From Zootoca vivipara (taxonomy: Eukaryota): 64,000 nucleotides of DNA. The stretch spans positions 17,608,001-17,672,000 of the forward strand of contig NC_083277.1 in assembly GCF_963506605.1 (NCBI RefSeq), given 5' to 3'. The notes under the pieces were generated by a model that searched no databases, was not told the DNA's origin, and worked only from the letters and a program-made list of their open reading frames with translations. Shown piece by piece: positions 54,248 through 63,649 of this stretch. The translations under genes were made by a program, and so were the position numbers. Each line of letters opens with the position of its first letter. Position 1 is the first letter of the stretch.

Positions 54248-54724
54248 TTACTGAACTGCAACGGGCGCGGTGCTGGCCTTAAGGGCCACTTTGGTGCCTT
54301 TGGCCGCCTTGGTCAGGGGCTTGGACGCGGCCTTGGCGCTGGCCGCGCTATGCAGAGCTTCGGTCTTCTTGGGCAGCAAGACGGCGTGGATGTTGGGCAA
54401 GACTCCGCCCTGCGCGATGGTCACTCCGCCCAGCAGCTTGTTCAACTCCTCGTCGTTGCGCACCGCCAGCTGCAGGTGCCGAGGGACGATGCGGCTCTTC
54501 TTGTTGTCCCTGGCTGCGTTGCCGGCCAGCTCCAGGATTTCTGCACTGAGGTACTCGAGCACAGCGGCCAAATAAACGGGCGCTCCGCCGCCGATGCGCT
54601 CGGCGTAGTTTCCCTTGCGCAACAGCCGATGGACTCTGCCCACGGGAAACTGCAGGCCGGCCCTGGAAGAGCGGGACTTGGCCTTGGCCCGCGCCTTGCC
54701 GCCTGTCTTGCCGCGACCGGACAT
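54248..54724 (-). CDS. Histone H2A, long-tailed variant, copy 1 (158 aa)
   Basis: [45 protein letters not shown] plus tail [44 protein letters not shown] and CCAAT boxes upstream; intronless. Confidence 0.96.
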
Positions 54725-57700
54725 CTTCAAAACCTCCTGACTTCTATCTCGACCAAAGAACGAAAGGAATGCAGGTGCTTGGAGTGCTTGGAGCCTTTTA
54801 TACGTTTCTTGACCTAGCTGCGATTGGTCGAAGACGAACAGGCCAATAAAAGAAAGGATTCTATTTCTAAACCAATGGGCGACGAGTGCGCGCGGGTGTG
54901 GTCCTGGGAGAGGGGAACGGTATATATTTATTGTAGAAGAAAAGAACAAATACTGTCTATCTCTGCTTTCTGTTCACCCGACCCTTCCCGTACAGTTTTC
55001 TAATGGAAATATTGATGCTCGTGGGTTGTTGTGTTTTTTGGGGTTTTTTTACCCATACGATGTTTTGTGAGAACGGGATATTTTGCTAGTTTCTCCCGTC
55101 TATACAGTTTCTAGCAGATTCCTTTGCTTCTACATTTCCAGCGCGTGAAAGCTACAACGGTCCGCCAAGAAACCTGTTACGCAGTTTACGTTAGACAATT
55201 CCCTGCGATACTTCGTAAAAGTGCACCTCTAACCTCTAGTCTAGGACTAAACAGGCCCAGGCTGCGGTAGAGAAAGCAGAGGGGGGCGGGGTTTGATGCT
55301 CCTGAGCAGTTGGCGGAAATGGCTGCCAAGCGCTTCAGATTTTCCCGCCTTTTCCCCTCCCCGGCACCTCGCTCGCCTGCCTGAGGGAAATGTTGAGCCG
55401 CTCAAAAAGACACTTATTAGAGACGTTGTAAATGTAATTAGTCTTGACGTTCACATAGACAAAAGAAGGTTACCAATACCAACAAATAACATCTCATTTT
55501 AATCTTTTCGTTTAAAATATAATCCCTGTGCGACATAGTTACCTTTCATGAACTCAAATTATATTTCAAAAACTGTTGGTTTTCCGTAATAATTACCCAT
55601 ATGTATAATCTTATAAGGGGATGAGGAGCCACCTTCTCCTCACAGCAGTCTTCATGGCAACTTTTTTTTATAAAAAAACAACTAAGAAGTATATTCCGGC
55701 AGCAGCTTTTTTTGCACTGTAGTCCCACATTTATCTTACATTTTTTTAATTTACAGATGTTAAGGATTTACAGATTGTGTGTCCTCTTACCTGTGAGTAA
55801 GCCACTGAATATAGTGGGACACACATAGGATATACCACTTCTTCCAGGTATCCGAGGAAATAGGAACATCATACTGAACTGCGTTTGTGTTATATTTTGG
55901 GTGCAGTGCTTCATTTTTAGATTTGATTCTATTTTTAAAAATGTGCACAGAAATATTCTGGGCATTTGTATTAGGTGGCAAATAAATTGAAATAATAATA
56001 ATATTACTCTGTATGTATATAGTGCTTCTGATTTGGTTATCTCACAAGCGCAGCCTTAAATTGTTCCTGGTTAGTTCACTGAGAGTCTGAAACCTGGAAA
56101 AAGACTTCAGATCTATGTCATTTTATTCATTCATTCATTCATTCATTTGATTTATATACTGCCCTTCATCATAAGATCTAAAGGCGGTTCTTGCCAACTA
56201 ATGTCAGAGAGGCAGATTGAGCATGATTTTTGTTAATTTCTGTAGCAGTCAAAGGTTTTACAGTAGCAGCAAAACAATTTTAGGAATTTCTGCATTCACT
56301 TCACATCAGGACCGGACTGAGATGTCATCCACTGTATTTTCCAGACAATTCCAACATTTTTTGTCGTTTAGTCGTGTCCGATTCTTCGTGACCCCATGGA
56401 CCATAGCACGCCAGGCACTCCTGTCTTCCACTGCCTCCCGCAGTTTGGTCAGACTCATGTTCATAGCTTCGAGAACACTGTCCAACCATCTCGTCCTCTG
56501 TCGTCCCCTTCTCCCCAAACCCAACATCTGGGTCTTTATTAGCCATCGCCATAAAGAGTCCCTAGCTATTATTGTATTCATATTACTATCCACTATCAAG
56601 TCTATTTCATGTACCAATTGCCAAATCCGCACAATACCATAGAACCACAGAACATCCTGGCTTCCTTTCACCTTTCAATCATCCCTTTTTTTTTGTAAAC
56701 ATTTTTGACACCACACAAAATCCTTCTTCTGTTCCTGGATGTTCAAATTAACGCCTGAAGTTTTGTTGGCAGATTCCGCCCCGCCCCCCTTTGGTACTTA
56801 TCCCGTCCTTTACTCAGTGGGAACAGTCTGGCTTAAATACATGCATGCATTGACCTTTGTTACTAACTTTTAGACCAATCTGCAGAACCTACTTTTTAAA
56901 AATCCAATGTGTATTAATCATCAGGATGAATAGTAAACAGAAACCGGAGTTTGTGTATGTGCATAAAAAGGCTGACATCAAGGCACCTTTCCCCGCCTCT
57001 CCCTTCGCCTTTGCTGTTGTTACAGAAGAGCTTTGTAAACACAGCTTGTCCCTTCGTTTTGTGACATTTTGGCTTCTCCTAATAAATGCATTGTGGAATC
57101 ATGCACTGAAACGTGCAAAGCTGTGGCAAAACAAAATCAATTTCAAAGAATCCACGATCCCCGCGTCCATACCACACATACCAGATGACGCATCTCAAGT
57201 ATGTTCTCGCTAGGGAAACTTTTTTTTGTTTTGCTCAGACGTCTTTTGCATTGGTAGTCGCAGTTATAAATTGCCTCCAGGTTTTATTTTATCTTTCCTT
57301 TCCTGATTCCACTTTGGTACGCAAATATATTTGCCCTTCAAACAGCGCGGGGAACACAAGATTGATCGGAGTAAAGATAATAATCTCCTATCTGAGATTA
57401 TAAATCACTGCGAACCACCTCCAGTGCGCGGAAGCAAGAAGAAACAGAAAATTAAAAGGATTGGTTTGGGTTGCTGCGTGAAAACAGCCAATGAGGCAGT
57501 CTACATTAAATATATTATAAATTAATATGATATCCAGCTTTCACGCGTTGGAAATGTATAACCAAAGGAATCGGTTAGAACCTCTATACACAGGGGAAAC
57601 TTGCAAAATAGGCCCGTTCTCACAAAACATCGTAGGGGTAAAAACAAAAACAAAAAACAACCCACGAGCATCAATATTTCCATTAGAAACCATTCGGGAA

Positions 57701-57959
57701 GGGTCTAACGAATAGAAAGCAGAGAGAGACAGTATTTGTCCTTTCTTCTACAATAAATATATACCGTTCCCCTCTCCCAGGACCACACCCGCGCGCACTC
57801 GTCTCCCATTGGTTTAGAAATAGAATCCTTTTTTCTATTGGCCTGTATGTCGTCGGCCAATCGCAGCTAGGTCAAGAAACGTATAAAAGGCTCCAAGCAC
57901 TCCAAGCACCTGCATTCCTTTCGTTCTTTGGTCGAGATAGAAGTCAGGAGGTTTTGAAG

Positions 57960-58433
57960 ATGTCTGGTCGCGGCAAGACAGGTGGCAAGGCGCGAGCCAA
58001 GGCAAAGTCCCGCTCTTCCAGAGCCGGCCTGCAGTTTCCCGTGGGCAGAGTCCATCGGCTGCTGCGCAAGGGAAACTACGCCGAGCGCATCGGCGGCGGA
58101 GCGCCCGTTTATTTGGCCGCTGTGCTCGAGTACCTCAGCGCAGAGATCCTAGAGCTGGCCGGCAACGCAGCCAGGGACAACAAGAAGAGCCGCATCATCC
58201 CGCGCCACTTGCAGCTGGCGGTACGCAACGACGAGGAGTTGAACAAACTGCTGGGCGGAGTGACCATAGCGCAGGGCGGAGTCTTGCCCAACATCCACGC
58301 CGTCTTGCTGCCCAAGAAGACCGAAGCTCTGCATAGCGCGGCCAGCGCCAAGGCTGCGCCCAAGCCCCTGACCAAGACCGCCAAAGGCACCAAAGTGGCC
58401 CCCAAGCCCAGCACCGCGCCCGTTGCGGTGTAG
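57960..58433 (+). CDS. Histone H2A, long-tailed variant, copy 2 (157 aa)
   Basis: Same fold; tail ..[34 protein letters not shown] at ~57882 and CCAAT at ~57857. Confidence 0.96.
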
Positions 58434-63101: not shown

Positions 63102-63117
63102 GGCTCTGAAAAGAGCC
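63102..63117 (-). terminator. Histone 3' stem-loop (H2A copy 3)
   Basis: GGCTCTTTTCAGAGCC on the minus strand. Confidence 0.95.
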
Positions 63118-63175
63118 TTTGGGTCTGGGTATTTTGTCAGCGGCCCTGGTCCGGGCTATTGGCCTTTTGGCCTCA

Positions 63176-63649
63176 CTACACTGCAACGGGCGCGGTGCTG
63201 GCCTTGAGGGCCACTTTGGTGCCTTTGGCGGCCTTGGTCAGGGGTTTGGGAGCAGCCTTAGCGCTGGCCGCGCTATGCAGAGCTTCGGTCTTCTTGGGCA
63301 GCAAGACGGCGTGGATGTTGGGCAAGACTCCGCCCTGCGCTATGGTCACTCCGCCCAGCAGTTTGTTCAACTCCTCGTCGTTGCGCACCGCCAGCTGCAA
63401 GTGGCGCGGGATGATGCGGCTCTTCTTGTTGTCCCTGGCTGCGTTGCCGGCCAGCTCTAGGATCTCTGCGCTGAGGTACTCGAGCACAGCGGCCAAATAA
63501 ACGGGAGCTCCGCCGCCGATGCGCTCGGCGTAGTTTCCCTTGCGCAGCAGCCGATGGACTCTGCCCACGGGAAACTGCAGGCCGGCCCTGGAAGAGCGGG
63601 ACTTGGCCTTGGCCCGCGCCTTGCCACCTGTCTTGCCGCGACCAGACAT
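63176..63649 (-). CDS. Histone H2A, long-tailed variant, copy 3 (157 aa)
   Basis: Same as copies 1 and 2; tail ..[27 protein letters not shown]; same promoter layout. Confidence 0.96.

Follow-up and report, generated by a model that had tools for sequence, protein, structure and literature searches.

A stretch of 64,000 nucleotides of the Zootoca vivipara genome (NC_083277.1, positions 17,608,001 to 17,672,000 of the forward strand; hereafter the window) carries three genes for an H2A histone variant with a long C-terminal tail. All three are intact, intronless open reading frames (ORFs), in each of which the histone fold and the H2A C-terminal domain (PF00125 and PF16211) are detected above cut-off. 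Their tails after LPKKT are exactly those described in an earlier note made from the letters of the window, and count 36-37 residues compared to 8 in canonical H2A of the same genome. The copies lie in three units of about 1.1 kb that share 90-92% identity and are alternately inverted (Table 1). Copies 2 and 3 lack the final Q of copy 1 because this codon is TAG, directly before the usual TGA, while copy 1 differs from the other two by I79V. Between copies 2 and 3, long terminal repeat-like sequence was read by eye at 59010-59340 and 60930-61430, split by another repeat at about 59340-60930. A genome-wide search returned 31 H2A-like matches, of which only the three window copies cover the full query including the tail, and no further intact copy was found in the 200 kb downstream or the 100 kb upstream of the window. 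That these genes represent a real, conserved H2A variant can be regarded as nearly certain.

Table 1. Features of the three H2A variant genes, in window positions
Feature	Position	Strand	Remarks
H2A variant copy 1	54248..54724	(-)	intact intronless ORF, 158 aa; ends APVAVQ
H2A variant copy 2	57960..58433	(+)	intact intronless ORF, 157 aa; terminal Q codon is TAG
H2A variant copy 3	63176..63649	(-)	intact intronless ORF, 157 aa; terminal Q codon is TAG
Tail of copy 1, residues 122-158	54251..54361	(-)	distal 21-residue module encoded by 54251-54313: K139, K142, K145, K149, APVAVQ
Tail of copy 2, residues 122-157	58323..58430	(+)	distal module 58371-58430
Tail of copy 3, residues 122-157	63179..63286	(-)	distal module 63179-63238
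Duplicated unit with copy 1	54143..55283	(-)	about 1.1 kb; 90-92% identical to the other two units
Duplicated unit with copy 2	57536..58661	(+)	inverted relative to both neighbouring units
Duplicated unit with copy 3	62963..64000	(-)	extends about 180 bases beyond the window end
Histone stem-loop, copy 1	54179..54194	(-)	followed by weak U7-pairing element at about 54154-54163, -4.9 kcal/mol
Histone stem-loop, copy 2	58493..58508	(+)	followed by weak U7-pairing element at about 58524-58533, -5.3 kcal/mol
Histone stem-loop, copy 3	63102..63117	(-)	Rfam Histone3 63077-63122; U7-pairing element -10.2 kcal/mol
Poly(A) hexamer AATAAA, copy 1	54135..54140	(-)	39 nt past stem-loop
Poly(A) hexamer ATTAAA, copy 2	58556..58561	(+)	48 nt past stem-loop
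Poly(A) hexamer ATTAAA, copy 3	63049..63054	(-)	48 nt past stem-loop
Promoter of copy 2	57808..57887	(+)	CCAAT x3 at -152, -123, -103; TATAAA at -78
Promoter of copy 1	TATA 54797-54802		layout as copy 2
Promoter of copy 3	TATA 63722-63727		layout as copy 2

In mature numbering, the variant core differs from canonical H2A (L007) at eight positions, namely Q6T, V43I, A45G, T59S, T76S, I87V, K99G, and Q112H, and the four core substitutions listed in the earlier note (RIGGGAP, YLSAE, KKSRI, NIHAV) are all among them. T59S is not exclusive to the variant, being also present in L004, another H2A of this genome. No acidic residue is altered, nor are K118 and K119, and the acidic patch is retained. 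V43I, A45G, and T76S presumably lie within two DNA-contacting loops, and Q112H just past the docking domain; these four changes may slightly tune nucleosome stability, while the core as a whole should assemble normally into nucleosomes, as judged from its sequence. Between copy 1 and copies 2 and 3, the core shows 12-15 synonymous changes and one replacement. The 121 core residues of copy 2 are identical in 8 of 17 sequences from other species, including four snake sequences, Rhineura, and Sceloporus, and the other nine differ from it by 1-6 residues. At the level of these comparisons, the variant core is shown to be under strong purifying selection.

The tail is composed of a variable Gly/Ser/Ala spacer followed by a conserved 21-residue end, KxxKxxK-hydrophobic-K-(P/A/S)-x-x-APVAVQ, its total length across species ranging from 30 to 51 residues. 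Identity between major clades reaches 0.51-0.77 in the last 21 residues, compared to 0.21-0.49 in the spacer. With one tail taken per species, the motif KxxKxxKxxx[KR] occurs in 15 of 18 tails, whereas shuffling of single tails yields it in 0.1-1.8% of cases, and its distance to the C-terminus is 9 residues in 14 tails and 10 in the tuatara. Once Rhineura, two Anolis, and the tuatara are left out, the 14 remaining tails align gaplessly at their ends, with the four lysines and V(-4) invariant and A-P-V-A-V-Q near invariant. The lysines, at positions 0, 3, 6, and 10, would fall inside a 120-degree arc of an alpha-helix, and the first three would share one face of a polyproline helix. Such a pattern is, as far as sequence can tell, that of a flexible tether carrying a short functional module. 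Structural resources add little: the AlphaFold model of the variant is uninformative (mean pLDDT 48.6), an ESM Atlas search with the tail returned only H2A C-terminus clusters, all below 0.9, and in the PDB the best matches among the 60 listed stop at about residue 128-131, so that none of those listed covers the tail.

Relatives were gathered by a tail-only search, by cluster look-ups, and by a truncated-profile search, a full-length search being swamped by tandem H2A fusion models. The tail-only search retrieved Podarcis and gecko clusters, to which the look-ups and the profile search added snakes, an amphisbaenian, iguanians, a cordylid, a skink, further geckos, and the tuatara (Sphenodon). 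Altogether, the tail is found in 19 other named squamate species and in the tuatara, the closest relatives of the window copies being Podarcis and Lacerta proteins; database names of these relatives go no further than 'histone H2A', 'histone H2A-like', or 'hypothetical'. The squamate survey proposed earlier thus shows a tail conserved across lepidosaurs, and therefore not a product of chance. The earlier idea of a lineage-specific, conserved H2A other than H2A.X is borne out as well, with a range wider than had been guessed. In the profile search, 7987 candidates were scored, each 90% cluster being shown by a single representative, and 19 members of the main cluster, out of 54, were examined; no protein with the tail from a turtle, crocodilian, bird, mammal, amphibian, or fish was present among the best 120 clusters. 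The variant can therefore provisionally be considered lepidosaur-specific.

Against a profile built from squamates only, the tuatara tail outscores 1000 of 1000 shuffles. The tuatara core has T6 and S76 as in the variant but keeps the canonical V43, A45, T59, and Q112, which suggests, from sequence comparison, that the tail arose first and that most core changes came later in squamates. The split between squamates and the tuatara is placed at about 250 My (PMC7393497). Two or three variant copies are present in several species. In a weakly supported tree, copies of one species mostly cluster together, which would be expected if duplication or gene conversion had occurred repeatedly. A tree of the core only, with one of 28 branches supported, leaves the origin of the variant unplaced. 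One might still suspect the tail of being a neutral read-through or an assembly artefact on redundant H2A copies, since long-tailed H2A models in databases often result from frameshifts or fusions. However, the recurrence of this tail architecture in 20 other species, the fixed lysine register, the purifying selection, and the intact promoter and stem-loop of all three copies leave this explanation with practically no credit, and conservation refutes it.

Regarding the H2A class, the absence of the SQ(E/D)Y phospho-motif noticed earlier stands: no SQ dipeptide occurs in the three window tails, and none in any of the 27 tails compared. Human H2A.X is set apart from H2A by T6, S16, H38, and G99 (PMC3510494). 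The variant has three of these four residues and keeps N38; the three shared residues also occur in non-X H2As. It could then be viewed as an H2A.X duplicate without SQEY, acting as a non-phosphorylatable stand-in, and its unpaired genes and dual 3' signals (see below) are reminiscent of H2A.X. Nevertheless, fish H2As also have T6 and G99, L005 (another H2A of this genome) has S16 and G99, the variant tail begins with KKTE as does that of canonical H2A, the tail profile has no H2A.X tail among its significant matches, and the core tree sets the variant apart, with weak support, from four H2A.X rows. Such a stand-in role thus seems improbable. H2A.J (H2A.22) is defined by V11 and a C-terminal SQ site (PMC8015243), whereas the variant has A11 and no SQ. 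Finally, no macro family match was found, the ORFs ending at 157-158 residues ahead of the stem-loop. The variant fails the defining tests of H2A.X, H2A.J, H2A.W, macroH2A, and TH2A, and is none of the first four.

Other unusual H2As were met in the same genome. Its H2A.X (L013, G000:C15:29796043) ends with SQEY, has an unusually divergent core, and no stem-loop was matched downstream of it. Two linked divergent H2As without stem-loop (L015 and L016, G000:C4:28786520-28793114) were also seen, one with a different 18-residue tail and the other ending with SQEF, presumably like the egg-type H2A.X-F of frogs. Acidic at its N-terminus and with a poly(A)-type 3' end, a further H2A of 147 residues (L017, G000:C10:2552380) is highly divergent (52% identity) and may have ties to the short or sperm H2As.

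The earlier note called the tail H1-like, which holds for its composition and not beyond. The window tails contain 6 Lys and 16-17% K/R, with a net charge of +5, i.e. 0.14 per residue; across species, charge per residue lies at 0.10-0.16 in 26 of 27 tails and at 0.06 in the remaining one, with 5-7 Lys in most tails. By comparison, the H1 C-terminal domains of this genome have 0.37-0.41 charge per residue, 39-44% K/R, and 2-3 S/TPxK motifs, a motif found in none of the 27 tails. One of three H1 domains stood out against the tail profile (2 of 300 shuffles) when composition was left uncorrected; after correction, 82-189 of 300 shuffles score equally for each of the three. An origin of the tail by H1 fusion was considered on this account and is unsupported, no H1 similarity beyond shuffles being left after composition correction.

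These figures bear directly on the proposal that the variant carries a built-in linker histone, whose basic disordered tail would clamp entry/exit DNA and compact chromatin as the H2A.W tail and the macroH2A linker do. The 36-37-residue length, the position, the K/A/P-rich composition, and the roughly constant number of Lys across species (about 5-6) would fit, and the longer tails of H2A.W and macroH2A are described to protect 10-15 extra bp of linker DNA (PMC6125630, PMC8015243, PMC3458575). Yet the charge density is about one third of that of H1, and Lys residues are less than half as numerous as the 13-14 found within the roughly 40 residues of the macroH2A linker (PMC3458575). Besides the lack of S/TPxK and of any sequence-order similarity to H1, charge alone leaves the fixed lysine register and the conserved uncharged end unexplained. 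We therefore rate this proposal as rather unlikely.

The uncharged end could also be thought of as a ligand of the HP1 chromoshadow dimer, through which HP1 would be tethered without H3K9 methylation. Ligands of this dimer follow a PxVxL rule. PKVAV or PKVTV is present in four snake sequences, in Sceloporus, and in one Rhineura copy; in addition, all of the 14 tails aligned from the end keep V(-4) of the terminal APVAV. On the other hand, PxVx[LMIV] has no match in 21 of 27 tails, including all three window tails, and geckos, skinks, the cordylid, and the tuatara have A, L, I, or M in place of the central V of the inner motif, which makes this idea very improbable. A structure prediction of the dimer with the tail scored 0.02 against a mark of 0.34; it gives no verdict and is not used as evidence.

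The 3' ends combine two kinds of signals. A perfect 16-nt stem-loop follows each of the three genes, which, being also intronless, resemble replication-dependent histone genes in these two respects, although copy 3 only, with 34.4 bits, reaches the Rfam Histone3 cut-off of 34 bits. The SLBP/U7-type 3' ends announced earlier are thus present with regard to the stem-loop, whereas the U7-pairing element is weak and atypical. It reads AGAAGAAC instead of AAAGAGCT, and AGAG is absent from all three variant genes, compared to its presence in 18 of 22 other stem-loop genes. Duplex energies were computed against the U7 of the same genome: the other genes range from -10.7 to -16.6 kcal/mol in 21 of 22 cases, with one at -7.8, and random sequence has a mean of -6.0. 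Copies 1 and 2 have the weakest of the 25 elements in all six settings, and copy 3 is a borderline case. In addition, a poly(A) hexamer lies within 60 nt of the stem-loop in 3 of 3 copies as opposed to 2 of the 22 other genes (background 7%), one of these two being a divergent H1 gene located downstream. In this context, the mRNA of human H2A.X occurs in a stem-loop and a poly(A) form, and downstream poly(A) sites come into use when U7 processing is weak (PMC7807067). The earlier warning that poly(A) libraries would miss the variant is therefore doubtful.

A motif search for H2B, H3, H4, and H1 gave no match in the window or the 100 kb upstream, so that the divergent H2A-H2B pair is lacking here, while most canonical H2A loci retrieved from this genome have an adjoining H2B gene. 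Because of the 3' signals and of this missing H2B partner, the sequence suggests that the variant would be supplied outside S phase. As for the promoter, no octamer, CRE, or MYB word was found in 400 nt. In three raw RNA runs of unknown tissue and with no positive control, each sampled at about 7.5 million records (6% of the run), 0, 2, and 0 reads fell on the promoter and 5' part of copy 2, the only region mapped. The single read pair begins upstream of the TATA box and may be DNA, and no contig of one relative's run matched the same region; both results are counted neither way.

The neighbourhood comprises olfactory receptor genes, a GNT-I (MGAT1) gene, and tRNA genes, as well as TRIM-like, zinc-finger, and B30.2-like ORFs named by eye from their translations. 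By analogy, it recalls the TRIM region linked to the major histocompatibility complex, genes of which lie on chromosome 5 in humans (PMC8813856). About 100 kb downstream, a small island consists of two divergent H1-like genes and a decayed H2A. The first (L040, G000:C2:17768461-17769438 (+)) is a 325-residue intronless R/K/S-rich ORF with AATAAA downstream, whose weak linker-histone match (20.3 bits) is below the cut-off of 22.4 and whose exact sequence is absent from the protein collection; we take it to resemble a protamine-like or spermatid H1. The second (L041/L059, G000:C2:17773840-17774469 (-)) is a divergent H1 of 209 residues with an N-terminal RQGS repeat, annotated only as H1.2-like, and its stem-loop is followed by ATTAAA 37 nt later. 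Between the two, the decayed H2A (L020/L024, G000:C2:17771736-17772200 (+)) displays a frameshift, stops, and a degenerate stem-loop.

Several further elements were seen in the region. Retroviral gag-like and integrase-like ORFs were recognized by eye about 180 kb downstream of the window (G000:C2:17848863-17851528 (-)). Within the window, an intact Harbinger-type DDE nuclease ORF of 451 residues (47398-48753 (+)) and, 12 kb from it, a Myb/SANT-like ORF (34810-35541 (+)) are possibly a domesticated Harbinger pair. An inverted pair of intron-containing tRNA genes, probably Tyr (22864-22953 (+) and 24115-24204 (-)), and a tRNA-Asn gene (34346-34418) are also present.

Where and when the variant is used can be considered from these data. 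Lineage-specific variants are often germ-cell biased (PMC8857922), and because of this and of the divergent H1-like genes nearby, the germ line is slightly more likely than not to be the site of use. The very slow evolution of the core fits equally with a somatic replacement H2A, produced from poly(A) mRNA for terminally differentiated, non-dividing cells in the manner of H2A.J or of polyadenylated cluster histones. The weak U7 element and the poly(A) hexamer are in favor of such a role, as is a core nearly frozen for about 200 My, closer in this to a housekeeping variant than to fast-evolving sperm variants; moreover, some stem-loop histone genes do produce poly(A) mRNA upon terminal differentiation (PMC7807067). 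Nevertheless, repeated local duplication in many species and the divergent H1-like neighbours fit germ-line or dosage-hungry use at least equally, and the somatic role is to be held as unlikely, albeit worth keeping in mind.

The reading that we tentatively favor, just short of calling it probable, is that this variant of lizards, snakes, and the tuatara forms ordinary nucleosomes and brings its tail module to the entry/exit site, where it would meet linker DNA and a partner; the cells concerned would be non-dividing ones, most likely those of the germ line. The H2A C-terminus is located at the entry/exit site and binds H1 (PMC3510494), and the module, leaving the core at this point, could reach linker DNA and the H1 site. 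There, the lysine register would grip linker DNA modestly, while the almost invariant PVAV end, because it is uncharged and hence has no charge-based DNA binding, would rather be a short protein-binding motif; binding of the partner might alter H1 occupancy or recruit a factor. The stem-loop, the weak U7 element, the near poly(A) hexamer, and the absence of an H2B partner would together make poly(A) transcripts possible and let the protein be deposited outside S phase, as with H2A.X.

A number of observations weigh against this reading. First, the tail, with a net charge of +5, is no more than mildly basic and does not have the S/TPxK motif tied to linker-DNA binding in H2A.W and macroH2A. The distal module can also drift, since neither Anolis tail has the lysine register, nor does one Rhineura tail, and since copies 2 and 3, like Anolis, have lost the terminal Q. 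Concerning the 3' ends, rank 3-4 is obtained for the U7 element of copy 3 in four settings, but in the two settings with a wider scanned interval it reaches rank 12-15 of 25 and thereby the normal range. Copies 2 and 3 are recent duplicates, which leaves about two independent poly(A) cases, and the sequence downstream of the hexamers is not U-rich (T 0.20-0.31), so that the poly(A) signal is only suggestive; ATTAAA is, in addition, the weaker hexamer. The promoter resembles an ordinary CCAAT/TATA histone promoter, without the scanned CRE or MYB motifs. Finally, the core tree gives the variant no supported clade (56/78), and orthology of the tuatara gene consequently rests on the tail and on T6/S76.

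A bolder version of the favored reading, which remains speculative and rather doubtful, would see in the variant an unrecognised lepidosaur H2A class of at least 250 My, with a tail ending in a new nucleosome-tethered docking module made of the fixed lysine register and APVAVQ, an mRNA that switches from stem-loop to poly(A) ends for germ-cell loading, and a place as the animal counterpart of H2A.W with a different motif. The variant has likely gone undescribed so far: no description of it was found in the open-access literature, and the relevant passages of a 2021 variant review concern other variants (PMC8015243). Catalogues of vertebrate H2A variants are built mostly on mammals, birds, frogs, and fish, while here an entire clade of reptiles, with about 12,000 species, has kept the variant. 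It would represent a further independent long H2A tail beside those of H2A.W, macroH2A, and the bdelloid H2As, based on a short conserved motif rather than on bulk charge, and would offer a natural test of how H2A tails act at the nucleosome entry/exit site, together with a way into the little-studied germ-line chromatin of reptiles.

Compared to known systems, the variant is similar to the canonical H2A type 2-B-like protein of the same genome (L005), with six core differences and with LAVRN, LLGGVT, the intronless gene, the stem-loop, and the KKTE tail start in common. It is distinguished from it by T6, I43, G45, S59, S76, and H112, by a tail of 36-37 instead of 8 residues, by the absence of a divergent H2B partner, and by the weak U7 element with a near poly(A) hexamer. 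With mammalian TH2A (H2A.1) and H2A.J, neither of which has a long tail to our knowledge, it shares a near-canonical core and, as predicted from sequence, use outside the ordinary S-phase supply; unlike H2A.J, it has neither V11 nor SQ, and unlike TH2A, which shares its locus with TH2B (PMC8857922), it has no paired H2B gene. The likeness to H2A.X lies in T6, S16, G99, the lone gene, and the dual stem-loop/poly(A) signals known from human H2A.X (PMC7807067), whereas the missing SQ(E/D)Y, the kept N38, the longer unrelated tail, and the separate SQEY-ending H2A.X of this genome set the two apart. Bdelloid rotifers also have animal H2As with an extended C-terminal tail, but these replace canonical H2A, H2A.X, and H2A.Z (PMC8015243), while the lizard keeps canonical H2A and H2A.X. 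Finally, the analogy with plant H2A.W and the macroH2A linker drawn in the earlier note is valid for position and length and not for the KSPKK motif or charge. Like H2A.W, the variant is a lineage-specific H2A whose C-terminal tail is long and basic and would lie at the entry/exit site, but it has no KSPKK and is of independent origin. Like the basic linker of macroH2A, about 40 residues follow the histone fold, but with 6 Lys in the window tails, no macro domain, and a free hydrophobic motif at the end. The variant may thus work like the H2A.W tail and the macroH2A linker by virtue of its position, rather than by their motif or charge.

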